Source: a virus
Taxonomy: Duplodnaviria; Heunggongvirae; Uroviricota; Caudoviricetes
Virus record (IMG/VR): IMGVR_UViG_2585427756_000019
Direction: 5' to 3' (one strand)
DNA: 14,349 nucleotides
Part shown: positions 1 through 14,349 of the stretch, one piece after another
How the letters are laid out: each line of letters starts with the position of its first letter
How positions within the stretch are numbered: the stretch's first letter is position 1
Position numbers and translations under genes: made by a program
The notes under the pieces: generated by a model
What the model was told of the DNA's origin: nothing
Database searches by the model: none
What the model saw: only the letters and a program-made list of their open reading frames with translations

Positions 1-176
1 TATACGCGCTGTATCTCTTTCTTCAGCCAGTCATCGCGCTGCGCACGGGCACTGCGTTTATCCGGATGATGTCGCTGTTGCTGACAGTGGTAATACGTTG
101 ACGGGGCAATATGCAGTTCGCTGCATAGCGGTCCGACCCCGTACTGCTCACGCAGCTTATCCAGCAGTGGCATCAT
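1..176 (-). CDS. IS3-family transposase OrfB, N-terminal part only (truncated by window edge)
   Basis: Minus-strand translation from 176 gives [58 protein letters not shown]..., a conserved IS3-family OrfB N-terminus. It is in the -1 frame overlapping the OrfA stop. Confidence 0.8.
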
Positions 177-499
177 TTTTTCCAGAGGCGGTCGAACTCC
201 GCCTTCGCAAAATAAGCGGAAGCCTGGCGAAGGATATCGTTACTGCGGCGCAGTTCACGATTTTCACGCTCCAGCTCTTTCAGACGCTGACGTTCAGCGG
301 TGGTGAGCCCTCCATCACCGCCCCCGGTATCCCGCTCATGCTGGCGAACCCAGACACGCAGAGTCTCCGGCGTACAGCCAATCTTTGGAGCAATGGAACA
401 AATTGTCGCCCATTGTGAGTCATATTCGCCCTGACTTTCCAGAACCATACGGACTGCCCGTTGACGGACTTCAGGGGAAAAACGAGTATTTTTAGTCAT
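173..499 (-). CDS. IS3-family transposase OrfA (helix-turn-helix and leucine-zipper subunit), IS629-like
   Basis: The 108-aa [59 protein letters not shown]... matches my recollection of IS629/IS1203 OrfA. It starts 5 bp inside the inverted repeat after an AGGA ribosome-binding site. Confidence 0.9.
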
Positions 500-553
500 C
501 CTGTTTACCTCTTTCTCAGGAAGTTTAGTCTCCAGGATTCCCGGGGCGGTTCA

Positions 554-1253
554 AACTGTACGTCGACTGATACAGCGGATTAACGAGATAATGATTTACG
601 CTGTAAACACTGGTCTGATTGATGCCAATCCAGCATCGGGGGTTGGGATGGCCTTTGAGAAGCCCAAAAAGCAAAACATGCCAACATTGCGGCCAGAAGA
701 ATTGCCGAAGCTGATGCGTTCTTTAGCTATGTCAAACCTATCTGTTTCGACTCGCTGTCTCATTGAATGGCAACTCCTGACACTTGTGCGTCCTTCTGAA
801 GCCTCTGGTGCTCGTTGGGCAGAGCTCGATCTTGATACAAAGCTCTGGACTATTCCGGCAGAGAGAATGAAAGCCAAACGAGAGCACATTGTTCCTTTAT
901 CACCCCAAGCTTTAGATATTTTGGAAGTGATGAAGCCCATCAGTGCTCATCGTGAACATATTTTTCCTAGCAGAAATGATCCTAAGCAATCAATGAATAG
1001 CCAAACTGCTAATGCAGCTTTAAAACGTATTGGTTTTGGAGGAAAGCTAGTTGCTCATGGCCTCCGATCTATTGCAAGTACAGCAATGAATGAAGCTGGG
1101 TTCAATGCGGATGTTATTGAAGCAGCTTTAGCTCACAGTGATAAAAATGAAGTTCGTAAAGCCTATAATCGTTCAACCTACCTGGTTCAAAGAAAAGATT
1201 TAATGAACTGGTGGGGATTATTTTGTATTAGTTCGAAGAGTGTGAATAAATGA
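554..1253 (+). pseudogene. int: P4-family tyrosine integrase, C-terminal catalytic part only; 5' part separated by the IS insertion
   Basis: The reading frame is open from the first base after the IS repeat (554) to the stop at 1251-1253. It contains the HxxR box (HGLRS) and the C-terminal VRKAYNRSTYLVQRKDLMNWW motif typical of P4-type integrases. The ATG at 591 in the ORF track is only the first in-frame Met. Confidence 0.8.
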
Positions 1254-2887
1254 ATACTTATAAGCAAACCATTAAACAAAAATCAAGATTAAACATATGG
1301 GAAACAGCTATCGCAAGGTTGACAACCCAAGCTGAGAGCTCAAGAATCTTAGAATCAAACTATTTAACAAATCTTATAGATTTTTGTTGGAAAGATACAC
1401 TAAATCAAGTTGCTATATATGATGAGAGCATTGTATTACGCAATGGTTATAATTGGGTGCAAAAAATAAGTGATAGTTATAAACCTAAAGCTGCAAGTGA
1501 ACTAAAGATTGCTTTCTTTTGCGGCCCTGAACCAGAAAATGACTTGGATATACTCTTATCATTAGATGTTAGAATAGAAAATATCTGGGCTTTTGAAATT
1601 GATAACAATTCATATAACACTGCCTTACAAAAAGCTAAAGAGTTCTATCCAAAATTAAAAATATTCCCTGGTTCTATTGGGGAGTTTTTTAAAACCACAC
1701 ATCATACCTTTGATATTATTTACCTTGATTTTACAAGTTCGTTATTGACTAAAAAGAGCCCTCCCCTTGGAGTAATAAACTCTGTATTTGACAATCAGGC
1801 CCTATCAGACTTAGGGGTGTTAATTGTAAACTCTTGCGAACCCGATGCTAACGAAGATAACGCAACATTTCTTGCAAGTTATTTCATGAATCACGAAATA
1901 ATTGAATCATCTGTAATTAACAAAACTAATGATGATGATTATGATGATAACTATGATTATTTTTCACTTTTTATTGAATCCCCCACATCACAAGGATACG
2001 ATGATATAAAGTCATTAGCAAAAGTTATAAAGACTAACATATCCGGAGCGTACTCTGCCTTTTCAACAAGTTATGTAATGCACTATGCTTCAATGATTAG
2101 TCCAACACTTCGTTTTCTACAAAATAACTCATTAAAAAGACAATTATTTAATGATAAAAAAGCTGAAGTAACTGCAACCTTTGCAGAAATTGGATCAACT
2201 GACTTTTTCAAAACATTAATATCAACAGATGGTGAAGCATCGTCCCCCTCCATTTTAGGAAACAGATTCCTAGATAATGAAAGCTACCCATTCTGGAATT
2301 TCATTGATTCATTAAATGGCTCAGGAACAAGTATTTCATCTTACTTTAAGAGCTTTTTCACCACCGCTAAAGAAGGTGTATCCATTTTAAATGCCGTGCA
2401 ATTTCGGGAATCATTTCACTCAATGCTTACAGGAGCTAGAAAGCTATTATCTCAGCGAATGCTCAATGCAATACCCCAAATAATAAAAGCAATTCCTGAT
2501 GCTAGAGGTGGTTTATTCTGTGACATTCCTTTACCCCACCTTTGGTTAGAGGTGGCACTTAATCAGTTAGGTGCACCATACCATGTAAACGTGAAAATGC
2601 ATAATCGATGGAAATATAAAGCAAAAACTCGCACAATGCATACGGACTTATTTGTTTTTGATAGATGCAGAGGTTTTTATGACTCAATGCCTATGATAGA
2701 TCAATACGAAACGATTCTTACTAACATCGAAGAACAAATTTTCGCTAGGTGTTGTATTGATATTATTGGTAAGCAATGTCGTTGGCCAACTCCAAAACTT
2801 TATTTTGGTTCGAACCTAATTGGAATAAACGAGTCTGATTGGTCTGAGTTCGCCGAACTTCGTGAAAGAGAAATTATAAAAGAATAA
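1250..2887 (+). CDS. Hypothetical 545-aa protein of unrecognised family; cargo gene in the int-cos slot of the satellite (candidate anti-phage defence protein)
   Basis: Long uninterrupted ORF whose ATG overlaps the integrase stop (ATGA at 1250-1253). Spot counts give about 22-32% GC, against clearly GC-rich backbone. The N-terminal third shows a beta-alpha alternation with FFCGPEPEND and FDIIYLDF motifs (Rossmann or methyltransferase-like, tentative). There is an acidic DDDYDDNYDYF tract mid-protein. No family assigned. Confidence 0.8.
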   Translation: MNTYKQTIKQKSRLNIWETAIARLTTQAESSRILESNYLTNLIDFCWKDTLNQVAIYDESIVLRNGYNWVQKISDSYKPKAASELKIAFFCGPEPENDLDILLSLDVRIENIWAFEIDNNSYNTALQKAKEFYPKLKIFPGSIGEFFKTTHHTFDIIYLDFTSSLLTKKSPPLGVINSVFDNQALSDLGVLIVNSCEPDANEDNATFLASYFMNHEIIESSVINKTNDDDYDDNYDYFSLFIESPTSQGYDDIKSLAKVIKTNISGAYSAFSTSYVMHYASMISPTLRFLQNNSLKRQLFNDKKAEVTATFAEIGSTDFFKTLISTDGEASSPSILGNRFLDNESYPFWNFIDSLNGSGTSISSYFKSFFTTAKEGVSILNAVQFRESFHSMLTGARKLLSQRMLNAIPQIIKAIPDARGGLFCDIPLPHLWLEVALNQLGAPYHVNVKMHNRWKYKAKTRTMHTDLFVFDRCRGFYDSMPMIDQYETILTNIEEQIFARCCIDIIGKQCRWPTPKLYFGSNLIGINESDWSEFAELREREIIKE

Positions 2888-2902
2888 ATCTCCACGCGCG
2901 CA

Positions 2903-2921
2903 GTGCTTTCCCCGCCTCGCC
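2903..2921. other. cos: P2/P4 cos cohesive-end sequence (19 nt)
   Basis: GTGCTTTCCCCGCCTCGCC is the exact reverse complement of the P2/P4 cohesive end GGCGAGGCGGGGAAAGCAC (recalled). It lies between the cargo gene and psu, as in P4. Confidence 0.8.
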
Positions 2922-2945
2922 CCCCCCCTTTGCGGGGGGGGTTTT
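2920..2945 (+). terminator. G/C homopolymer hairpin (C9-tttgc-G8) followed by TTTT; possible terminator for the cargo gene and/or part of the cos packaging region
   Basis: Run of 9 C at 2920-2928, loop TTTGC, run of 8 G at 2934-2941, then TTTT at 2942-2945. Confidence 0.4.
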
Positions 2946-3023
2946 AATGCAGTTGCACTGACACGCTCAGACCGCGCCGGGAATGGCGCGGTTTGCAGAA
3001 AATGAGGCAGGGAAACGCATGCA

Positions 3024-3056
3024 AAGCCATGCACCTTATCGATGCATGGCTTTTTT
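3024..3056. terminator. Stem-loop with flanking T/A tracts between the convergent cargo gene and psu; candidate bidirectional terminator
   Basis: AAGCCATGCA (3024-3033), 9-nt loop, TGCATGGCTT (3043-3052), followed by a T run to 3056 on the plus strand. On the minus strand it is followed by TTTG. Confidence 0.45.
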
Positions 3057-3086
3057 CAGTAAAAACGGGCGGATTTTCGGGGAATT

Positions 3087-3659
3087 TTACACTGACTGAC
3101 GTGATGCAAGTTGCGCACTTTTACGCGAAAAAATCATGTTCTGCGCAGGGGTGAATTTTTCACGGCTGTCATCCACCGAAGCCACGTCAGGCCTGAATCC
3201 GATGGTCGTTAAAATGTCGCTATCCTGTGCGGAATAATTAATTTTTTCACCCTTCGCAAGCCAGGACAGAAGGGCTTCACGCAGGGCATCTGTGGCACGC
3301 TGTATGGCACAGTTTCGGGCAATGGCCGTCAGCTCACTGTAGCCCATCAGCTCCGGTGCCAGTGCGGCCGCCAGTACTGTGCCGTGCTGCTGCATAAAAT
3401 CATTCAGCCGGTCGCGGATGCTGATGTGCTGAACGGCTTCATGCGAACGAATATAACGACCGGCGGCCTGATTCACCTGCCATTTTCTGACTTCGATAAT
3501 ATTGCGTAATTCGTCCAGGCGGCTGACGTTTCTGCCTTCTCCTGACAGAAGCCGCAGATATTCCTGTTCGGCCGCTGCCAGCTCATTTTTGCGTTGCAGC
3601 CATGCTGCTTTGTTATTCTGACAGGTGTCAAAGGCCTGCTGTAAGGCTGTGCTTTCCAT
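3087..3659 (-). CDS. psu: Polarity suppression protein Psu (capsid decoration / Rho antagonist), P4-like
   Basis: 190-aa ORF beginning MESTALQQAFDTCQNNKAAWLQRKNELAAAEQEYLRLL..., matching P4 Psu in length and recalled sequence. It is last in the sid-delta-psu operon. Confidence 0.9.
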   Translation of the reverse strand: MESTALQQAFDTCQNNKAAWLQRKNELAAAEQEYLRLLSGEGRNVSRLDELRNIIEVRKWQVNQAAGRYIRSHEAVQHISIRDRLNDFMQQHGTVLAAALAPELMGYSELTAIARNCAIQRATDALREALLSWLAKGEKINYSAQDSDILTTIGFRPDVASVDDSREKFTPAQNMIFSRKSAQLASRQSV

Positions 3660-3732
3660 CGTTATCTCTTTCTCATCATGCTGAAGAATAAAAATACGGT
3701 GTGCGGCGACGGCCGGGGTTAACCGGCAGCCC

Positions 3733-4233
3733 TCATTCCAGACGCAGCGAATATGATTGTGTTTTTAACCGTACTGGCGGCAGTTCCTGTTTTTCATGCA
3801 GGCGTTCTGCCAGTTCGTCCGGCGTGACCGGGCGGACAATGAAGCGGGTGATGGTCTGAAGCGTTTTAAACACCAGACCACAGTCCGGATCCGTGCACAC
3901 ATAAAAACGCTCGGTGACTTCCTGAGACAGACGCCGCGATGTTCTTGACAGCGCAAGGCCTTTACATCTCCGACAACAATATCCGGTAACAAGCATTCTT
4001 TTCGGGCGTTTCATACTGCCGGAGGCTGACGTCAGTGAATCGCGGTATCTCTGTTTGCCTGAAATGTATTCCATTCCTGAATCTTTACTGTCAGAGAAAA
4101 AGCTTTCACTCGCTTCAAATGTCGCAGAGCAATAAATATTCCGGCACTGTGCAATCATTATCTTGGTGCCATCGTCCATGAAATGTGCGCGACGGGTGTG
4201 AGCAACATGTCCACACGACGGGCAGTAAATCAT
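3733..4233 (-). CDS. delta: Delta late-gene transcriptional activator (tandem Ogr-like zinc-finger domains), P4-like
   Basis: 166 aa with two Cys-rich Ogr-type modules (MIYCPSCGHVAHTRRAH...QCRNIYCSATF and ...YCCRRCKG...YVCTDPDCGLVF). Its start overlaps the sid stop (ATGA at 4230-4233). Confidence 0.9.
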   Translation of the reverse strand: MIYCPSCGHVAHTRRAHFMDDGTKIMIAQCRNIYCSATFEASESFFSDSKDSGMEYISGKQRYRDSLTSASGSMKRPKRMLVTGYCCRRCKGLALSRTSRRLSQEVTERFYVCTDPDCGLVFKTLQTITRFIVRPVTPDELAERLHEKQELPPVRLKTQSYSLRLE

Positions 4234-4964
4234 GACAGCAGTCCTCTGGCCTTAAGCTCTGCTCCCTGCTGGTCTATTTTGTCCTGCCACACCTTGCGCT
4301 GTGCCGGTGTGCCTGCCACCTCATAATCCATGTGCGGGAGTGTTGCCGCTGACAGTCCGGTCAGCCGGAGAACCGGCTCGCCGGTGAGGCTGATTTGCAT
4401 CTGTTTAATTTTCTGTTCCAGCGATGATTTCACCTGCTGCATGACAGCTTTATCGGGTGCGACGTAGCCCTGATGGCCGGTGGTGTTGGCGAGCGGATTT
4501 TCCTGTACCAGGATACTCAGATGCATTGCCCGGACAAGCGCCTCACAGGTTTCATTCAGGGCGTGTTCCAGCTCATGCTCTGCATACAGACTCAGAAGGT
4601 GATGATGTGCCTTCCGGTAGGCGGTGGCCGTGCTGTCACACGCCCCTTTCAGGCGTTCACGTTCGAAATTCAGCACCACGGCCAGATTGTCATATTCCTG
4701 TACCAGCTCCCGGCGTGCCACGCGCTCAATGTGGCGCTGTTTCAGCTCGTCGCTCAGGACACCACCGGCTGCACGAAAGGCCGTGCGCCAGTCGTCAGCG
4801 TCGTTTCCGTTGGCCTGCGTCAGCGCATTTTTTTCCTGCTCTGCCCGTTCAATGGCCGTGATGGTCTCATCCATCAGGCGGGCGTTCTCAAGATGAGCGG
4901 CTCTGGCCTTTTCCAGTTGTGCCAGTGCGGGTTGCAGATATTCAGGGATGGTGTTGTCAGACAT
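4230..4964 (-). CDS. sid: Sid external scaffold / capsid size determination protein, P4-like
   Basis: Start assigned to the second Met (MSDNTIPEYLQPALAQLEKARAAH...), which gives 244 aa as in P4 Sid and is preceded by GAGGAG at 7-nt spacing. The upstream ATG at 4982 overlaps that ribosome-binding site. Confidence 0.9.
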   Translation of the reverse strand: MSDNTIPEYLQPALAQLEKARAAHLENARLMDETITAIERAEQEKNALTQANGNDADDWRTAFRAAGGVLSDELKQRHIERVARRELVQEYDNLAVVLNFERERLKGACDSTATAYRKAHHHLLSLYAEHELEHALNETCEALVRAMHLSILVQENPLANTTGHQGYVAPDKAVMQQVKSSLEQKIKQMQISLTGEPVLRLTGLSAATLPHMDYEVAGTPAQRKVWQDKIDQQGAELKARGLLS

Positions 4965-5036
4965 TTTCCGGCTCCTCGTCACTTCAGGTTAAGAAAATTG
5001 TGACGTACACCGGACAACAACACGACGCATTGCAGA

Positions 5037-5054
5037 TGTGCCAGCCCTGACACA
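5037..5054 (-). promoter_or_regulatory. Psid-type late promoter activator site: TGT-N12-ACA dyad (Ogr/Delta binding element)
   Basis: TGTgccagccctgacACA has perfect TGT-N12-ACA spacing. On the minus strand a CACAAT -10-like hexamer lies about 46 nt downstream of the dyad centre, putting the dyad near -55 of a predicted start about 27 nt upstream of the sid ATG. Confidence 0.55.
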
Positions 5055-5133
5055 GGAGACTCATCCTCACACCGGCAAGCCAGGAAAAGGTCGCAGGAAA
5101 AACCGGCTTACTGTTTGTTTTTTTATATTTTAC

Positions 5134-5237
5134 TGTTCACCTCTGTTCACCATAAGAAAAAAGATAAGTAATACAGTAAGTTAAAGGGTGAACAATCGCA
5201 GTAATGACTGTTCACCGTCTGTTCACCACTGTTCACC
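5134..5237. repeat. ori: ori-like iteron cluster: six copies of the octamer TGTTCACC (five direct, one inverted), candidate alpha-protein binding sites
   Basis: TGTTCACC at 5134-5141, 5144-5151, 5209-5216, 5220-5227 and 5230-5237; GGTGAACA (inverted) at 5187-5194. This matches the recalled P4 ori with six type I repeats, located between Psid and the rightward operon. Confidence 0.7.
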
Positions 5238-5516
5238 CGTTGATGGGCTTTTTGTGCTGTTTATTACTGTTTATTTTTATTAATTCGCCGGGAATGAATA
5301 AGAAAAAACGATTTGTATTTCACTATAAAAATTACGAATTGCTTTAAGTGGCTTTAAATGACTTTAAGTGGAGATGAACAAAAAACACACAAGCATTGTA
5401 AGGCTGCCGGAACAAATCCCCCCTGTTGCGTCTGCCAAAAATATTCACAAAATAAAGCGCTACCCGAAGCCGGACGGACTTATCCGGTGCTGTATGGACA
5501 TTAACGAGGTAGCCCG

Positions 5517-5783
5517 ATGCAAGCTGTTTTTTCTTCCCCGTCTCCCGCCCCTGTGACGCCACTGATGCCGCTGCCGGACATCACGCAGGAACGTTTTTTA
5601 CGTCTGCCGGAAGTAATGCACCTGTGCGGCCTGTCACGCTCGACCATCTATGAACTCATCCGTAAGGGGGAATTTCCGCCGCAGGTGAGTCTTGGCGGTA
5701 AAAATGTGGCCTGGCTGCACTCTGAAGTCACCGCATGGATGGCCGGGCGCATTGCCGGACGCAAACGGGGGTACGACGCATGA
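5517..5783 (+). CDS. vis: AlpA/Vis-family small DNA-binding protein (excisionase / transcriptional regulator), P4 orf88-like
   Basis: 88 aa with a GAGG ribosome-binding site 7 nt upstream. The core [47 protein letters not shown] is characteristic of the AlpA helix-turn-helix family. Confidence 0.8.
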
Positions 5784-5875
5784 TGATGCCCGCTCTGCAA
5801 AAACTCCCTTTTTCTGGCTTGCCTTTTTTCGGCATTTGCGGATATAGTTTTCCCGCTGCCGCAAAATCGGCAGCC

Positions 5876-6171
5876 GGGCGTGGAAACCCGAGCAATCTAA
5901 CGGCGACATATGACGCGCCATGCGTCTTTTTTTGTGTCGCAATCAACGCCACAGAGCGCCAGATTATGGTGTGGTGTGTGGTCAGTCGAGCAGATGGCAC
6001 TCCGTGCATCCTGCCCGCGTCCGCTCATTATGCCGCAGGGTCAATGGTAGCTCAGGCGGGGCAGCCTCCGGGCTGGCCGGTATCCGTTAGAGCCGGTATT
6101 TCCACCCCCGTCTGGGCTATCGCCATCGAGCGTGGAAACTCCGGCGATAGCGTAACCTGCTATCTAACGGA
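5876..6171 (+). ncRNA. cI: Putative P4-type RNA immunity leader (cI-like RNA region with seqA / seqB / seqC complementary elements); boundaries approximate
   Basis: Two similar segments containing CGTGGAAAC...ATCTAACGG (5876-5903 and 6129-6171) flank a segment CCGTTAGAGCCGGTATTTCCACCC (6085-6108) that is largely their reverse complement. This recalls the seqA-seqB-seqC arrangement of the P4 immunity region downstream of vis. Confidence 0.35.
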
Positions 6172-6181
6172 GGCTGCCATC

Positions 6182-6379
6182 ATGGCTACAACCCTTACCC
6201 CTTCACACCCTGAATTTGTCTTTGTGTTTGCGGCTGTCCGTCGCGCAGACCGTCATCCCCGTATCTGCATGCTTCGCACCGTCGCCGGTGATGAACGCAG
6301 TGCCCGCCGTTCCCTTGTCCGTGACTATGTGCTCTCCCTTGCTGCCCGTCTGCCGGTGGTGGAGGTGTCCCGTGCGTAA
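6182..6379 (+). CDS. Small hypothetical protein of the satellite left operon (position of P4 kil/eta); 65 aa
   Basis: ATG preceded by GGAGG at about 8 nt. The stop overlaps the start of the next ORF. The ORF-track 214-aa call (5735-6379) is an over-extension through GC-rich sequence. Confidence 0.4.
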
Positions 6380-6659
6380 TAAAAAAGCCCCTCAGACCGT
6401 CTCAGCACGTCATGACGCCCGTGAACACCTCAGCATTGAGGCTTACCATAAGCTCAACCGCGCCAGCGCCGTATCCCAGTTTGTTGGGGGTGATTTGATT
6501 CACCGTGAACTCTCCGGCCTGCATCAGCTCTACATTCCGCATATTTTCAGCTACCTGAATGAAGATATTGATTTTGTGCTGAATGAGCTGAAAGCCAAAG
6601 GCCTGTGCCGCGATTTTCTCGCCCAGCAGAAAGACCGGGGAGACAGGACGCATGTTTGA
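6372..6659 (+). CDS. Epsilon-like small protein (P4 helper-derepression protein position); 95 aa from a GTG start
   Basis: GTG start 4-5 nt after GGAGGTG. The 95-aa product ([28 protein letters not shown]...) agrees in length and position with my recollection of P4 epsilon. Its stop overlaps the next start. Confidence 0.5.
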
Positions 6660-7107
6660 TTTTCCCCAGCCCGGTGAGATTTACCGTTCTGCCGGTTTTC
6701 CCGATGTGGCCGTGGTCGGCATTCTGGAAGACGGTATTCCGTGGGAAATGCCGTACCGCTGCCCGGACATTGTCTGGAACCCGTACCGCCGTAAATTCAG
6801 TATCCTTGTGCGTATCCTCGCTGACGGGCGCACCACAGACATCCCGCTGGGGCGTTTTCTGCGGGAATTTACCTGTGACCGTCCTGACCTGTTTAAACGC
6901 AGCCCCGTAAACCGGCATGCGGTACTGAAAGAAATGGCCGGAGACCCGGAATTACAGAAATGGCGGGAGAAATATCTGGATATTTACCCGCAGGACACTG
7001 TTCCGGTCAGCCGGGCGGCACCGGTGGCGCGGGAATGGCGGGAAATTCCCCGCACGGAGCCTGACCCGGAAATCACCCCGGATAACAGTTACCGCAATTA
7101 TCTGTAA
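6652..7107 (+). CDS. Hypothetical protein, P4 orf151-like
   Basis: 151 aa, exactly the recalled P4 orf151 length. Start overlaps the upstream stop (operon coupling). Confidence 0.7.
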   Translation: MFDFPQPGEIYRSAGFPDVAVVGILEDGIPWEMPYRCPDIVWNPYRRKFSILVRILADGRTTDIPLGRFLREFTCDRPDLFKRSPVNRHAVLKEMAGDPELQKWREKYLDIYPQDTVPVSRAAPVAREWREIPRTEPDPEITPDNSYRNYL

Positions 7108-7242
7108 TTAAAAAACGACACCCGAAAAATTAAATGTGCGTATTCGCGCAGGGATACGCACGTCTTCAGGAGACGCAGATATGCCTTATCAGTTAATGCA
7201 ACCGGCACGGAATGCAGTCATCTGTCACAGGGAGGAAAACAA

Positions 7243-7563
7243 ATGAAAACACCCTTACCGCCCGTCTTACGCGCTGCCCTTTACCGTCGCGCTGTCGCCT
7301 GTGCCTGGCTGACCGTGTGCGAACGTCAGCACCGCTACCCGCATCTCACCCTTGAGTCACTGGAAGCGGCCATCGCCGCTGAGCTGGAAGGCTTTTATCT
7401 GCGCCAGCACGGTGAGGAAAAAGGGCGTCAGATAGCCTGTGCCCTGCTGGAAGATTTAATGGAATCCGGCCCCCTGAAGGCCGCGCCGTCGCTGTCCTTT
7501 CTCGGGCTGGTTGTGATGGATGAACTCTGTGCCCGTCACATAAAAGCGCCGGTACTGCACTGA
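7243..7563 (+). CDS. Hypothetical protein immediately upstream of alpha (P4 orf106-like)
   Basis: 106-aa ORF with GGGAGG ribosome-binding site about 8 nt upstream. Same strand and operon as alpha. Confidence 0.65.
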
Positions 7564-7577
7564 AGGAGAACAACACC

Positions 7578-9911
7578 ATGAAAATGAACGTAACCGCCAC
7601 CGTCAGCCATGCGCTCGGCCACTGGCCGCGTATTCTCCCGGCGCTGGGGATTCAGGTGCTGAAAAACCGTCATCAGCCCTGTCCGGTCTGTGGCGGGAGT
7701 GACCGCTTCCGTTTTGATGACAGGGAGGGGCGCGGCACCTGGTACTGCAATCAGTGTGGTGCCGGTGACGGCCTGAAACTGGTTGAAAAGGTGTTTGGTG
7801 TCTCCCCGTCCGACGCGGCCGCAAAGGTGGCTGCCGTGACCGGCAGCCTGCCCCCGGCTGACCCGGCAGTGACGGCTGCCGCCGGTGCTGAAACAGACGC
7901 TGCCCGGAAGAACGCCGCCGCACTGGCACAAACCCTGATGGCGAAAACCCGTCCCGGAACCGGTAACGCCTACCTGACCCGCAAGGGCTTTCCCGGCCGG
8001 GAATGCCGGATGCTGACCGGCACACACAGAGCCGGTGGCGTGAGCTGGCGTGCCGGTGACCTTGTGGTGCCACTGTATGACGACAGCGGCGAACTGGTTA
8101 ACCTTCAGTTAATCAGTGCTGACGGCCGTAAGCGCACCCTGAAAGGCGGACAGGTCAGGGGCACCTGTCACACCCTTGAAGGACAGAATCAGGCCGGAAA
8201 ACGTCTGTGGATAGCGGAGGGATACGCGACCGCACTTACCGTGCATCACCTGACCGGTGAAACGGTGATGGTGGCGCTTTCTTCCGTGAACCTCCTTTCT
8301 CTGGCCAGCCTTGCCCGGCAGAAGCATCCGGCCTGTCAGATTGTCCTTGCCGCAGACCGTGACCTCAGCGGTGACGGCCAGAAAAAAGCCGCCGCAGCCG
8401 CAGATGCGTGTGAAGGTGTTGTTGCCCTGCCGCCGGTCTTCGGTGACTGGAATGATGCCTTCACGCAGTACGGCGGGGAGGCCACCCGTAAGGCCATTTA
8501 CGATGCCATCCGGCCACCGGCTGAAAGCCCGTTCGACACCATGAGTGAAGCGGAGTTTTCCGCCATGAGTACCAGCGAAAAGGCCATGCGTATCTATGAG
8601 CATTACGGCGAGGCGCTCGCGGTCGATGCCAACGGCCAGCTTCTGTCCCGCTATGAAAATGGTGTCTGGAAGGTGCTGCCGCCACAGGACTTTGCCCGGA
8701 ATGTGGCCGGGCTGTTTCAGCGGCTGCGCGCGCCGTTCTCCTCCGGGAAGGTGGCCTCCGTGGTGGACACCCTGAAGCTGATTATTCCGCAGCAGGAAGC
8801 CCCCTCCCGCTGCCTGATTGGCTTTCGTAACGGCGTGCTCGACACGCAGAACGGCACGTTCCACCCGCACAGTCCGTCACACTGGATGCGTACCCTGTGC
8901 GATGTGGATTTCACCCCGCCGGTGGAAGGGGAAACGCTGGAAACCCACGCCCACGCGTTCTGGCGCTGGCTTGACCGTGCCGCCGGTGGCCGTGCGGAAA
9001 AACGCGACGTGATTCTGGCCGCACTGTTTATGGTGCTGGCAAACCGCTATGACTGGCAGCTCTTTCTGGAGGTGACCGGTCCCGGCGGCAGCGGCAAAAG
9101 TATCATGGCCGAAATAGCCACCCTGCTGGCCGGGGAGGATAACGCCACGTCGGCCACCATTGAGACGCTGGAATCCCCGCGTGAACGTGCCGCGTTAACT
9201 GGCTTCTCACTGATACGCCTGCCGGACCAGGAAAAATGGAGCGGCGACGGAGCCGGACTCAAGGCCATCACCGGCGGCGATGCAGTGTCCGTTGACCCGA
9301 AATACCGGGATGCGTACTCCACGCATATCCCGGCGGTGATTCTGGCCGTGAACAATAACCCGATGCGCTTCACCGACCGCAGCGGCGGCGTGTCACGCCG
9401 GCGGGTGATTATTCACTTCCCGGAACAGATAGCCCCGCAGGAGCGCGACCCGCAGCTTAAGGACAAAATCACCCGCGAGCTGGCGGTCATCGTGCGTCAC
9501 CTGATGCAGAAGTTCAGCGACCCGATGCTCGCCCGGTCACTGCTTCAGTCCCAGCAGAACTCAGACGAGGCACTGAACATCAAACGGGATGCCGACCCGA
9601 CGTTTGATTTTATCGGCTATCTGGAAACCCTGCCGCAGACCAGCGGCATGTATATGGGGAACGCCAGTATCATCCCGCGTAATTACCGTAAATACCTCTA
9701 TCACGCCTATCTGGCCTACATGGAGGCAAACGGCTACCGGAATGTACTCAGTCTGAAAATGTTCGGGCTGGGGCTGCCGGTGATGCTGAAGGAATACGGA
9801 CTGAATTACGAGAAGCGCCATACCAAACAGGGGATACAGACCAACCTGACACTGAAAGAGGAAAGCTACGGCGACTGGCTGCCAAAATGTGACGCCCCTG
9901 CAACAACCTGA
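7578..9911 (+). CDS. alpha: Alpha protein: bifunctional primase / SF3 helicase with C-terminal origin-binding domain, P4-like
   Basis: 777 aa, the P4 alpha length. N-terminal zinc-binding motif CPVCGGSDRFRFDDREGRGTWYCNQCG, Walker A GPGGSGKS at LEVTGPGGSGKSIMAEIA, AAGGAG ribosome-binding site upstream. Confidence 0.95.
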   Translation: MKMNVTATVSHALGHWPRILPALGIQVLKNRHQPCPVCGGSDRFRFDDREGRGTWYCNQCGAGDGLKLVEKVFGVSPSDAAAKVAAVTGSLPPADPAVTAAAGAETDAARKNAAALAQTLMAKTRPGTGNAYLTRKGFPGRECRMLTGTHRAGGVSWRAGDLVVPLYDDSGELVNLQLISADGRKRTLKGGQVRGTCHTLEGQNQAGKRLWIAEGYATALTVHHLTGETVMVALSSVNLLSLASLARQKHPACQIVLAADRDLSGDGQKKAAAAADACEGVVALPPVFGDWNDAFTQYGGEATRKAIYDAIRPPAESPFDTMSEAEFSAMSTSEKAMRIYEHYGEALAVDANGQLLSRYENGVWKVLPPQDFARNVAGLFQRLRAPFSSGKVASVVDTLKLIIPQQEAPSRCLIGFRNGVLDTQNGTFHPHSPSHWMRTLCDVDFTPPVEGETLETHAHAFWRWLDRAAGGRAEKRDVILAALFMVLANRYDWQLFLEVTGPGGSGKSIMAEIATLLAGEDNATSATIETLESPRERAALTGFSLIRLPDQEKWSGDGAGLKAITGGDAVSVDPKYRDAYSTHIPAVILAVNNNPMRFTDRSGGVSRRRVIIHFPEQIAPQERDPQLKDKITRELAVIVRHLMQKFSDPMLARSLLQSQQNSDEALNIKRDADPTFDFIGYLETLPQTSGMYMGNASIIPRNYRKYLYHAYLAYMEANGYRNVLSLKMFGLGLPVMLKEYGLNYEKRHTKQGIQTNLTLKEESYGDWLPKCDAPATT

Positions 9912-9918
9912 CCCACCT

Positions 9919-9944
9919 GACCGGCATCTGCCGGTCTTTTTTTT
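9919..9944 (+). terminator. Rho-independent terminator after alpha
   Basis: GACCGGC / GCCGGTC stem with a 4-nt loop, followed by eight T (9937-9944), starting 8 nt after the alpha stop. Confidence 0.65.
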
Positions 9945-9960
9945 ATCCCGACATCCCCCG

Positions 9961-10260
9961 AAGGTGAACAATCCAGTGTTCACCCTTCACCGTATATTCA
10001 CCCGTTATCATACTGAAATTAAAAGAGAAAAACGAAAGGTGAACAGTGTGAACAATCAAATCAAAAAAAACTTTTTTCTTCCTGAGTGATTTCAGTACGG
10101 GGGATTAATCACCGGTATGAGTCACACCGACAGAATGCCGGAGGTGAAGAATCGAATGTTCACCCTTCACCCATTATTCACCACCTATCACTCTGAAATA
10201 AAAGGAGAAAAAAGAAAGGTGAACAGTGTGAACAGTTCTTTCGAAAAAAAATTTTTTTCC
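9961..10260. repeat. crr: crr-like cis replication region: two roughly 120-bp direct repeats at 180-bp period, each with TGTTCACC / GGTGAACA iterons
   Basis: Units 9961-10082 and 10141-10260 align with high identity at an offset of exactly 180 bp. Each carries GGTGAACA, TGTTCACC, GGTGAACA and GTGTGAACA motifs. This matches the recalled P4 crr (two 120-bp repeats, 60-bp spacer) about 4.5-4.8 kb from ori. Confidence 0.7.
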
Positions 10261-10513
10261 TGTACGATATAGCATCAATCCAAGTAAAAATGCGCTTTCA
10301 TTTCACATTAACTTACAGCCATTGGTATACGATTAGGTATACGCACAAAAACTGAATTAAACAAAATCATTAAAAATCAAAGCAATACAATATTTATTCA
10401 AACTCCGCCAGCCATGATTGGACGGTGTAAGGACAACACCAACAAAAACAGGAAGTTAGAAGTCTCAGCAAAACACCGACCAGACGGTGAGGAGACATAA
10501 AAGGATACGCAAA

Positions 10514-10570: not shown

Positions 10571-13500
10571 TCAGAACGACCAGTTCACACCAGCTACCGC
10601 GTTCCACGGGGATTCCACACCGGCACTATGGCTATACCCCACCCCAAGATGCCCGCTTAACGTACTGCTGAATGAGGCTTTAATACCTGCCTGGTATATT
10701 CCACGTCTGCCCGACAAATAATTGACGAAATTACCGTCACTATTCACTTTCACCCGGTTATCATCGACAAATTCTTTGCGCACAGCCGCCTTCAGCCACG
10801 GCTCAACTTCCATACCGTTCCCCAGACGCATGTTGTAACTCAGCGTTGCGCCCAGTTCACGATATATACTGCGGGTATCGACTGATTTCGATTTCATGCC
10901 ATTGGATAAATGATATTCGGGGTTATCAGCGGTGAACCCCGTTAACGATGCATACGGCGTCAGGTTCCAGTTACCATCGGTAAATCGCATCCCGGTTTCA
11001 ATGTGACCGCCCAGCCCGTTGCTGTGGTAACTGCCATTGGCGGCTCCACCGCTGCTCATTTTACCTGCTACGTTACTTTTAAAACGGTTCAGCTTCACGA
11101 CACCGTCCAGATAGAAACCACTTTCATGTTCCCAACTGGCATAGCCGCCCAGAGAATAACTGCCCACACTGCCATGTCCTCCGCGATCAAAACCGATATG
11201 TGAATGGGAATAGCCCATAAAAGCGCCTAGCGTGGTAATTCCTTCAGGAATATCATTACGGCTGTCGATCCCCACTGTCATTCCGGTCAGCGTCTGCTCA
11301 AACCCGGCACCCGCATCGGTGGTGACATTATTACGGGTGTTATACGTCGCCCCCCAGACATTATTGTTGTGTGGACTCGCTTTCATTATGTTCAACCGCT
11401 CGCGAATACTGTTTAGCTCAGCATCAAATACCAACGGTAATGTTGCTGCCATATTGAGTACGGCTGCCGTAGAAGGCGTAATGCGTTTCTCCGGAACGGG
11501 TGTCGGCGTTGGATCGGGAGTAGGGTCTGGTTTTGGATTTGGGTCTGGCTTTGGATCGGGTTTTGGGTCTGGCTTTGGATTTGGGATGGGGTCCGGGTTG
11601 GGTTTGACATCATTGGTCAGGTTCCAGTTGCTGTTGCCGTCACTTTTCAGGACATACTCATAGGTCCCAAGATCAACGAAACCGCCGGTATTGCCCAGCG
11701 TAAACGAAGCATCCCCTCCCCCTGTTTTCACCAGCGTCATCGCGTCGTCAGACTGTGGGCTGACGCCGGTATCCTGAACAAAGATTTTAAAATTACCAGT
11801 GGCGTTGTTGTTGACGACCAGTTGATCGCCCCGGGAGCCTGCAACGTTGGTATGCAGGTAGAAATTACCGCTACCGGAAAGTTCATTGGTTGTCAGCGTA
11901 TTGTAGATACCGTTAGTTGTGGCAGGCGCTGCTGTTTGTGCTGACAAATAAACATCACCGTCGTTGAGTAGCAAACTGTTTACTCTATATTCGCAGTTGC
12001 TGGTACCTGCACAGGAATTATTGCTGTTAAGCCAGACACTGCCCCGGCTGGCAGCCGTCAGGTCGGCAAGCGTGGTATCGACGCCATTTCCCAGAGTCAA
12101 TGTCGCGCTATCGGTAATCCGGACCGCCCCTTCGAGTTTAACTGGCGTAACATTATCCCGTGGCGTCATTAACGACAGGCTTCCTGTCGCGCCACTGACC
12201 GATGCATCCGCCAGCGTACCTGCGTAGACGATTGCCGTACCGCCAGCGACCTGGAGATCTTCTGCCCGGGCCAGAGCCTGAAACTCATCTTTTGACCGCC
12301 CAAGGGTATATTGCCCGCCAGAGTTAACCTTTGTGGCGGAGTCCTGACCCAGGTTTTGCATTGCCCCACCCTTGCCAACCGTGGAGTCGCGAGCTTCGGT
12401 ACCTGCTAATACCAATAAATTACCGCCATTTTCCAGCAACATATTGGTCGCTAAATTGCCGGAAATGGAAAAAGTACCGTACTGGTGAGTACCGCTGATT
12501 TCAATACCGTTAGCCGTGCTCGTCTGGAGAGCGGCACCGCTGTTCTGGACGATATCTGTCGCTTTGCCATTATCGTTGACTGTCAGCGTACCGCCTTCAT
12601 TGATCTTTGTTTTTATTGCCTCTCCGTTAGCTGAAACTGTTTGTATTCCGCCGTCGTTAATTGTTGTCTCATTCGCCACACCCTCGACAATTTGTTCACC
12701 GCCGGTGAGCGTCGTGCCTGTCGCAGTGGCTTTTGTTTTGACGATCTCCCGTCCGCCCATATTGACCTGTGTTTTGTCAGAAGAGGTGTCTGACTCCACG
12801 GTTAACACGCCGCCATTTGCCAGCAGGATATTGTTCGCCGCACCCTGCTCGATGCTGAACGCGACGCCATCCGCGCGTGTTCCTGTGACCCGCGTCGCCC
12901 TGGTGGTTGCAACCAAAGCGCCCTGGCTACTCTGCTGTATCCCCGTTGCGCTGCCTTTCTCCCGCACATCGAGTGTGCCGCCGTCATTAAGCACCGAGTT
13001 TTCAGCCAGACCGCCCTCATTAACTACCTGTGAACCCCCATTAATAATGGAACCTTCCGCTGTCCCGTTTGCCATAATTTGTTGTAGGCCAGAGACGATA
13101 TCGGTATTGATTGCCTTACCATAATTCTGAACGGTTTGCGTGCCACCATTGATGTGTGTTTTCTCTGTTGACCCACCATCAACAATTTGTTCACCACTTT
13201 CGATATTTGCTTCAGTGGCTAAACCATATACCGTTTGCTTGCCACCTTTGATATTTGCTTTATCAGAAGTGGCACTGGCATATATTGTTTGGGTGCCAGC
13301 ACTATTGAGTACAGTGCCAACATCTTTTCCATAAACATCCATTTTGCCGTTGGCATTAATAATCGTGTCAACTGCGCGGGAACCAGTGACGACTGTTAAT
13401 GAGCCAGCGTTTTCCAGCACTACATTTTTAGCTTCTGAATTCCTGATGTAGAAAGCATCACCATAACTGTTGGTTCCTTCGATAAGTGTTCCGGAGGTCG

Positions 13501-13718
13501 TGGAAGCAATTAATGCGCCGCCGGATTGTTGCTCAACATGCTTAGCCTCACCACCGTCCTGAACCTCCAGAACGCCGCCATTATTAAGTCTGGTGCTATC
13601 TGTTTTAGCCTCCTTCTGGACAATCAGCTTACCGCCAGTATCAATGGTAGTATTTTTCGCCGAGGTTTTAGCCACTACCGTCAGTTCGCCGGTATTTTCC
13701 AGCACAACATAATTAGCC
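10571..13718 (-). pseudogene. AIDA-I/Ag43-type autotransporter adhesin (beta-helical passenger, Pro-rich linker, C-terminal beta-barrel); 5' end removed by the IS10 insertion
   Basis: C-terminus ...NAVAGVNWSF is an autotransporter barrel signature. Linker PNPDPIPNPKPDPKPDPKPDPNPKPDPTPDPTPTPVP. The passenger has Gly-rich beta-helix repeats. The apparent N-terminus MCIHLNLMIFTKIIRGF is encoded by the IS10 end and there is no signal peptide, so the ORF is a fusion artefact. Confidence 0.85.
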
Positions 13719-14349
13719 CTGATGAATCCCCTAATGATTTTGGTAAAAATCATTAAGTTAAGGTGGATACACATCTTGTCATATGATCAAATGGTTTCGC
13801 GAAAAATCAATAATCAGACAACAAGATGTGCGAACTCGATATTTTACACGACTCTCTTTACCAATTCTGCCCCGAATTACACTTAAAACGACTCAACAGC
13901 TTAACGTTGGCTTGCCACGCCTTACTTGACTGTAAAACTCTCACTCTTACCGAACTTGGCCGTAACCTGCCAACCAAAGCGAGAACAAAACATAACATCA
14001 AACGAATCGACCGATTGTTAGGTAATCGTCACCTCCACAAAGAGCGACTCGCTGTATACCGTTGGCATGCTAGCTTTATCTGTTCGGGCAATACGATGCC
14101 CATTGTACTTGTTGACTGGTCTGATATTCGTGAGCAAAAACGACTTATGGTATTGCGAGCTTCAGTCGCACTACACGGTCGTTCTGTTACTCTTTATGAG
14201 AAAGCGTTCCCGCTTTCAGAGCAATGTTCAAAGAAAGCTCATGACCAATTTCTAGCCGACCTTGCGAGCATTCTACCGAGTAACACCACACCGCTCATTG
14301 TCAGTGATGCTGGCTTTAAAGTGCCATGGTATAAATCCGTTGAGAAGCT
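13719..14349 (+). mobile_element. IS10 (IS4 family; Tn10-type), outside end plus 5' half of the transposase, continues past window end
   Basis: From 13719 the sequence reads CTGATGAATCCCCTAATGATTTTGGTAAAAATCATTAAG..., the IS10 terminal sequence as I recall it. Confidence 0.9.
13826..14349 (+). CDS. IS10 transposase, N-terminal part (open to window end)
   Basis: ATG at 13826 translates to MCELDILHDSLYQFCPELHLKRLNSLTLACHALLDCKTLTLTELGRNLPTKARTK..., the IS10 transposase N-terminus. Not listed in the ORF track because there is no stop in the window. Confidence 0.9.
   Translation, partial: MCELDILHDSLYQFCPELHLKRLNSLTLACHALLDCKTLTLTELGRNLPTKARTKHNIKRIDRLLGNRHLHKERLAVYRWHASFICSGNTMPIVLVDWSDIREQKRLMVLRASVALHGRSVTLYEKAFPLSEQCSKKAHDQFLADLASILPSNTTPLIVSDAGFKVPWYKSVEK

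Follow-up and report, generated by a model that had tools for sequence, protein, structure and literature searches.

The stretch of DNA analyzed here (14,349 nucleotides of a Caudoviricetes virus, IMG/VR record IMGVR_UViG_2585427756_000019; hereafter, the window) carries a P4-like satellite. In the slot between its integrase gene (int) and the cos site lies a gene for a protein of 545 amino acids (aa), which we call the cargo gene. We favor, with a probability of roughly 55%, the reading that the cargo is a stand-alone, single-gene anti-phage defense effector with S-adenosylmethionine (SAM)-dependent alkyl-transfer chemistry. This reading rests on genomic association and on one fusion to a retron. 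Since the gene in its slot has been public since 2022, ours is not a discovery of the locus; what is new is the structural assignment, a C-terminal half that lacks a solved relative, the breadth of the defense contexts, and the retron fusion.

Fold of the cargo protein

The open reading frame (ORF) of the cargo is a real gene. At its own base composition, 545 stop-free codons would occur by chance with a probability of ~7e-19, the longest run in the other five frames across the interval is 66 codons, and the translation is conserved among homologs.

In an AlphaFold2 model of the protein (predicted local distance difference test, pLDDT, 91.3; predicted template-modeling score, pTM, 0.93), the N-terminal half adopts the Rossmann-like, seven-strand fold of class I SAM-dependent methyltransferases, with Trm1 and then Tyw2 as its closest matches. 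A first-pass annotation, made by a model from the sequence alone, had held that the function was not visible in the sequence; given the modeled fold, this was too pessimistic. Conservation was counted over 98 diverse representatives of the family, which share 21-68% identity. The marks of the class I superfamily are all present among the conserved positions: a motif I loop, an acidic residue after strand beta-2, and a catalytic residue in motif IV (Table 1). The motif I loop, GPEPxND, is atypical for class I methyltransferases. By its place in the class I methyltransferase fold, E116 is presumably the ribose-binding position.

Amino-group methyltransferases have (D/N)PP(Y/F) and D-P-F motifs, and aminopropyltransferases have a catalytic aspartate; by unaligned comparison, the invariant aspartate of the F-D-x-x-x-L-D motif presumably resembles both. 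The positions that follow D160 vary among the 98 members (F/A, C/T, G/S, and P/S at positions 161 to 164), and because of the first three of these no specific acceptor was assigned.

No fold match to the C-terminal half was found among solved structures in the PDB. When the C-terminal domain was used by itself as a profile, the search brought back only fragments of family members, and no new architecture appeared; nearly all family members are 500-560 aa long and span both halves. This makes the two halves a single obligate unit, in which the C-terminal half occurs only together with this methyltransferase domain.

Several further assignments were considered and rejected. A C-terminal PD-(D/E)xK or HNH nuclease had no fold match, and a structural zinc site formed by C91, C424, C473, and H445 would involve residues that are lost in distant members. 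An m5C-type catalytic cysteine in motif IV was also discarded: position 162 is cysteine in 68 of the 98 members but threonine throughout the clade of the window's protein.

Sequence libraries recognized nothing in the protein. Searches of Pfam, NCBIfam, PADLOC v2, and PHROGs returned no match to it at E<=1; for PADLOC-DB v2.0.0, this means 0 of 5027 component models. Curated methyltransferase models gave only subthreshold matches (E of 0.02-0.04) in a few homologs and none for the window's protein. The best match of the family profile to PDB sequences had an E value of 0.44, and neither the profile nor either half on its own matched any PDB sequence significantly. The BFVD viral fold library offered only generic methyltransferase domains, with template-modeling scores of <0.2. 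The first-pass annotation had recognized the gene as a member of no defense family, and PADLOC v2 bears this out; the sequence and profile searches brought up no confident match to a housekeeping family or a known defense system, either of which it had said would count against its candidate.

Contexts of the family and readings of its function

Searched with the family profile, 1.84 billion cluster representatives yielded only 544 sequences at E<=1e-3 and 241 at E<=1e-30, and at least 180 homologs are full length. The exact protein occurs on 430 Escherichia contigs, and its cluster reaches Salmonella and E. albertii. Among the 5426 complete Escherichia coli genomes, the gene is present in five, each time with 100% identity. 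Matches in species-representative genomes (27 of ~100,000) are spread thinly across Gammaproteobacteria, Bacteroidota, Firmicutes, and Methanosarcina. The family was found on 3 plasmids and 6 IMG/VR contigs and was absent from 50,697 phage records searched with tblastn, which we count in favor of a role in defense. In one relative of 777 aa (P0177), the full module is fused to a poly-gamma-glutamate-hydrolase-like domain (PF05908) that lies at the N terminus.

The annotation had suggested looking for the same gene in the int-cos slot of other P4-like satellites, and it is there in five enterobacterial genera. In satellites of Escherichia (NCTC9699), Klebsiella aerogenes, Rahnella, Pectobacterium, and Photorhabdus, an integrase of 396-401 aa is followed by the cargo and then by psu/delta. 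The ssrA/smpB locus adjoins the element wherever the upstream flank was recovered, that is, in all but the Klebsiella contigs. Another E. coli homolog, 41% identical, lies between the tail-fiber assembly and sheath genes of P2-like prophages in draft genomes (positions 7871-9529 of locus L012; also L013 and L014); none of the 5426 complete E. coli genomes has it. This slot is the G/FI moron site, which in P2 itself corresponds to the Z/fun position. An Aeromonas homolog sits in a lambdoid prophage beside HNH and KAP-NTPase genes, and a Salmonella homolog sits in an integrase-relaxase island.

In Vibrio parahaemolyticus, a chromosomal integron array carries the gene as the sole gene of a 1.8-kb cassette, with attC-like repeats on either side (L002, 7811-9760). 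Some Vibrio strains have it split or frameshifted into ORFs of 249 and 282 aa (P0409/P0410), which suggests decay of the gene. We also considered whether the cassette is VP1817, a validated V. parahaemolyticus cassette; judged by name alone, no member of the Vibrio cluster is so called, and the identity was rejected.

In Bacteroidota, the immediate neighbors include Avs2 (Pedobacter and Bacteroides), Septu PtuA/PtuB (Chryseobacterium and Flavobacterium), and Gabija GajB (Sunxiuqinia). Avs2, Septu, or Gabija was directly adjacent in 7 of the 24 genome-scan loci examined, a raw count with no background rate. No partner gene recurs across the contexts examined. The slots that the family occupies are known reservoirs of defense genes. 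Both these slots (P4, P2, lambdoid, and integron sites) and the Avs2, Septu, and Gabija neighbors associate the family with defense islands. The cargo family is thus horizontally mobile and moves as a one-gene unit through defense-gene reservoirs. The annotation had named as a point against its candidate that the gene might lie outside mobile-element hotspots in most genomes; this was not seen, and homologs were mainly in mobile-element slots and defense islands.

A line of evidence that is independent of the neighborhood argument comes from a protein of 1124 aa (P0238), in which a retron-type reverse transcriptase (RT) is joined in frame to a complete copy of the cargo-family module. Against PADLOC, its RT matched RT-Protease_XI (4.9e-130) and also RT-TIR_XII and RT-Toprim_I-C. 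At the place taken by the module, its closest RT relatives bear a trypsin-like protease, TIR, Mrr-like, or cyclase domain, so the module occupies the retron effector slot. The protein is identical in two independent metagenome assemblies (L046, 2012-5386, and L047). Just upstream of the likely RT start, L046 has a 15-nucleotide inverted repeat (2556-2570/2694-2708), as expected for the a1/a2 arms of a retron. The fusion may represent a retron type that has not yet been described, one whose effector has a methyltransferase fold.

If the cargo is a defense effector, it would be cotranscribed with int in a lysogen. On infection, the C-terminal and helical regions would recognize a phage cue or substrate, and the catalytic domain would then alkylate a macromolecule using SAM, probably by N-methylation. 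Such alkylation would block phage replication or host translation, in the manner of abortive infection. We would favor RNA or DNA over a protein or small molecule as the acceptor; RNA is suggested by the top rank of Trm1 and Tyw2, whereas the acidic isoelectric point (pI) keeps protein and small-molecule acceptors possible.

Several observations weigh against a defense role. The retron fusion, in a distant family member, is known from a single lineage. Most genome-scan loci have no known defense gene among their three nearest neighbors, and some homologs lie beside sugar-modification genes or transporters. No sensor, antitoxin, or regulator is visible. Given the variation that follows D160 in motif IV, the residues that contact the substrate are not fixed. 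Taken as a whole, the protein is acidic (pI of 5.3; 4.2 for the methyltransferase domain) and has no recognizable nucleic-acid-binding domain, which makes a protein or small-molecule substrate possible. Expression of the cargo in the window is uncertain because an insertion sequence (IS) cuts off the 5' half of int together with its promoter. Rousset et al., who catalogued the gene, left it outside their tested set, and the family is mentioned neither in the part of the DefensePredictor supplementary tables available to us nor in the two integron-screen preprints searched or another language-model screen.

Among the alternatives, the one that fares best, although we consider it unlikely, is an accessory SAM-dependent transferase unrelated to phage, whose substrate would be a small molecule, a polyamine-like compound, a protein, or a surface sugar and which would bring a niche advantage and hitchhike in hotspots. 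The label given by Rousset et al. and weak matches of some family members point to spermidine-synthase-like enzymes, the catalytic domain is acidic, and the neighbors of some homologs include GNAT, formyltransferase, and DegT sugar-modification genes, or transporters. No metabolic neighborhood is conserved across the loci, however, and the gene recurs in four classes of defense-gene reservoir and beside Avs2, Septu, or Gabija. An accessory enzyme would also sit poorly with the retron-effector fusion and with a very rare, patchy distribution that is typical of defense genes.

Somewhat less probable again is an orphan nucleic-acid methyltransferase that serves the element by constitutive methylation of satellite, helper, or host DNA or RNA, for anti-restriction or epigenetic ends. 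Satellites, prophages, and integrons, all of which carry this family, often carry orphan methyltransferases, and the cargo has a methyltransferase fold with conserved SAM-binding and catalytic positions and no nuclease partner. Yet it has no sequence match to DNA methyltransferase families or to the methyltransferases of known defense systems discussed below, and its top fold matches are RNA-modifying enzymes. Anti-restriction methyltransferases are common in phage genomes, whereas this family is absent from the phage genomes searched. The effector position in the RT fusion is likewise easier to reconcile with a toxic effector than with a methylase that protects.

A selfish, addiction- or toxin-like gene that keeps its element in the genome and has no part in phage immunity would fit a single gene on mobile elements, the effector-like position in the retron fusion, and the cost suggested by the broken Vibrio copies, but it is very improbable, since none of the contexts examined includes an antitoxin-like partner or a small ORF next to the gene, and since integron cassettes and hotspot cargo are exchanged freely, which a toxin lacking its antidote would hinder.

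We return to the favored reading, a single-gene defense effector. Known effectors act by cleavage, NAD or nucleotide depletion, or membrane damage, and to our knowledge a defense mode that consists only of SAM-dependent transfer, with no partner nuclease, is absent from current defense catalogs. A further step, which we put forward tentatively and judge to have the odds somewhat against it, is that the family is a new class of enzymatic immune effector: a self-contained enzyme for SAM-dependent alkylation of nucleic acid or another essential macromolecule, with the previously unseen C-terminal fold as a sensor or substrate clamp, and a portable module that works alone in P4 and P2 hotspots and integrons or as the effector of a new retron type. 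If the gene protects, it would add a defense family in which SAM-dependent transfer, carried out by a Trm1-like domain, is the sole chemistry that can be recognized, and a domain whose fold is unknown would acquire a function. It would also be a clean case of one effector shuffled among satellites, P2-like and lambdoid prophages, integron cassettes, and a retron fusion. The system is compact, consists of one gene, and is present in E. coli and Salmonella, and it can be tested in standard strains.

The slot and the satellite backbone

The first-pass annotation had described a single long ORF of foreign composition whose start codon overlaps the integrase stop, in the int-cos/psu hotspot of a near-canonical P4 backbone, and this description held. 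The cargo has a GC content of 33.9% (26.4% at third codon positions; 21-43% in 100-bp windows), whereas the satellite backbone (2888-10000) has 56.1%. The contrast in composition is as had been described, and the 22-32% given for the cargo was slightly too low. The int and cargo genes overlap by the same 4 bp in E. coli NCTC9699 and Klebsiella aerogenes and, by our own ORF call, in Photorhabdus. The ORF list and Rfam revealed no second gene or noncoding RNA hidden in the slot.

Table 1. Features of the cargo gene, its protein, and the edges of the slot (window coordinates)
Feature	Position	Strand	Basis and remarks
Tyrosine integrase, C-terminal remnant	543-1253	+	Pfam Phage_integrase; homology to intact int begins at 543; intact relatives, 401 aa
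ATGA overlap, integrase stop/cargo start	1250-1253	+	Cargo ATG at 1250, int TGA at 1251-1253; operon/translational coupling
Cargo gene, 545-aa stand-alone two-domain protein	1250-2887	+	ORF list and translation; ATG start; stop codon at 2885-2887
N-terminal helical segment, aa 1-80	1250-1489	+	Predicted secondary structure; invariant Y4, K9, R13 (98 diverse members); basic, pI 9.1
Class I SAM-dependent methyltransferase (Rossmann-like) domain, aa 81-246	1490-1987	+	
Motif I (SAM loop) A-F-F-C-G-P-E-P-E-N-D, aa 88-98	1511-1543	+	G92 (97/98), P93, P95 (98/98), N97, and D98 (97/98), kept in 94-98/98
E116, acidic residue ending strand beta-2	1595-1597	+	Kept in 94/98 members
Motif IV F-D-I-I-Y-L-D-F-T-S-S, aa 154-164	1709-1741	+	F154 and D160, 98/98; D155, 97/98
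All-helical middle region, aa 247-415	1988-2494	+	Secondary structure; basic, pI 9.4; no PDB fold match
C-terminal alpha/beta region, aa 416-545	2495-2884	+	Conserved C424-D425, R453, Y456, K459, M463, D466, D471, C473-R474, Q496, R500, D504, R540
Conserved P4 cos-proximal noncoding region, right edge of hotspot before psu	2888-3086		Compared with P4 clone, Rousset Table S2A
Terminator-like GC-rich hairpin and T-run	2920-2948	+	Terminator scan; just past cargo stop, within conserved P4 cos-proximal boundary; sequence common to P4

The backbone was identified by Pfam matches to Psu (3087-3659, minus strand), Delta (3733-4233, minus strand), AlpA/Vis, Ash, DUF5375, and the alpha primase-helicase (7578-9911). 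Rfam placed the P4 immunity RNAs, namely, the C4 antisense RNA, its a1/b1 target, and isrK, at 5842-6127 on the plus strand, confirming an intact P4-type immunity region. Window positions 3121-3200, next to cos, are identical to the P4 sequence cloned in Table S2A of Rousset et al. The integrase remnant, the cargo, the P4 cos-proximal region, and Psu follow one another in the layout of the hotspot.

The left edge of the variable slot falls in the last ~35 nucleotides of int, at ~1217, since the match to the integrase of E. coli A20, which is 90% identical and is followed by a different cargo, ends there. The content of the slot thus differs between similar satellites: the cargo is found in few complete E. 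coli genomes, the A20 integrase has another cargo, and P4 has gop-beta-cII. The GC content of int drops from ~0.48 to 0.37 toward its 3' end (900-1253), nearing the composition of the cargo. As the recombination edge falls inside int, its tail may have been imported along with the cargo.

An IS3-family element, which the first-pass annotation had missed, fills window positions 1-542, with orfA at 173-499 and an ALIL frameshift pseudoknot at 102-218, both on the minus strand. Its end abuts the integrase at ~543 and takes away the N-terminal ~180 codons of int. This element has displaced the int promoter, from which the cargo would be expressed, and the satellite in the window is probably no longer able to excise. 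The junction between IS3 and int was found in no complete E. coli genome of the collection.

Two further stretches of low GC content (0.33-0.37) are noncoding, one between sid and vis (5100-5400) and the other after alpha, near the presumed right end (10050-10500). At the right end of the window, an IS10 RNA-OUT match lies at 13764-13833 (minus strand). The ORF of 1067 aa at 10571-13774 (minus strand) is probably a YpjA/EhaD-like autotransporter, 1526 aa long in NCTC9699, truncated by IS10.

Comparison with known systems

The closest precedent is system #41 of the P4 hotspot in Table S1B of Rousset et al. 2022 (Cell Host Microbe; PMC9122126), labeled 'Spermine_synth | SAM_MT'; the system consists of one protein and was recorded 35 times in E. 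coli. In the part of the sequence that is printed, it differs from the window's protein by two substitutions; it is essentially the same protein and occupies the same int-psu slot. Its sequence is absent from the tested systems of Table S2 in that study, where it is catalogued only, with no activity, structure, or mechanism reported. The claim of novelty in the first-pass annotation, which had missed this entry, needs to be qualified: the gene itself was listed in 2022. A full-text literature search for a Trm1-like or methyltransferase defense gene returned nothing relevant, and no account of a functional test of the family came up in the papers and supplementary tables covered.

Trm1, the tRNA (guanine26-N2)-dimethyltransferase (PDB 3axt and 2dul), is the closest match to the modeled N-terminal fold. 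There is no similarity at the sequence level, however, and the Trm1 family model (PF02005) does not match the cargo. Motif IV differs, the prolines and the glycine of the Trm1 motif being missing in the cargo protein, and the C-terminal, tRNA-binding domain of Trm1 is not matched by the C-terminal half of the cargo. Trm1 is a housekeeping enzyme, whereas the cargo has a mobile, defense-linked context. The cargo protein is not a member of the Trm1 family.

Retrons in which the RT is fused to its effector (PADLOC types XI, RT-protease; XII, RT-TIR; and I-C, RT-Toprim) provide the setting for P0238, where the family module is the C-terminal partner of an RT of that clade. None of the PADLOC retron models matched by P0238 has a methyltransferase-fold effector. 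The window gene, in contrast, is not part of a retron: the window holds no RT, and Rfam found no retron RNA.

The methyltransferases of restriction-modification (RM), BREX (PglX), DISARM, and MADS systems are not matched by the cargo protein in PADLOC or Pfam. Unlike them, the cargo has no nuclease, helicase, PglZ, or other partner and moves alone. It does not resemble a type IIG-like RM enzyme either, with no nuclease fold in its C-terminal half and no adjacent nuclease gene in the satellite contexts.

The gop-beta-cII genes of P4 and the other validated hotspot cargos (PARIS, TIR-NLR, and RT-nitrilase, among others) share the slot and the cos-side boundary with the window's cargo and are unrelated to it in sequence. 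In the P4 clone, gop-beta-cII has the opposite orientation, whereas the window's cargo is codirectional with int and overlaps its stop codon. By position, the gene in the window is a P4-hotspot cargo.

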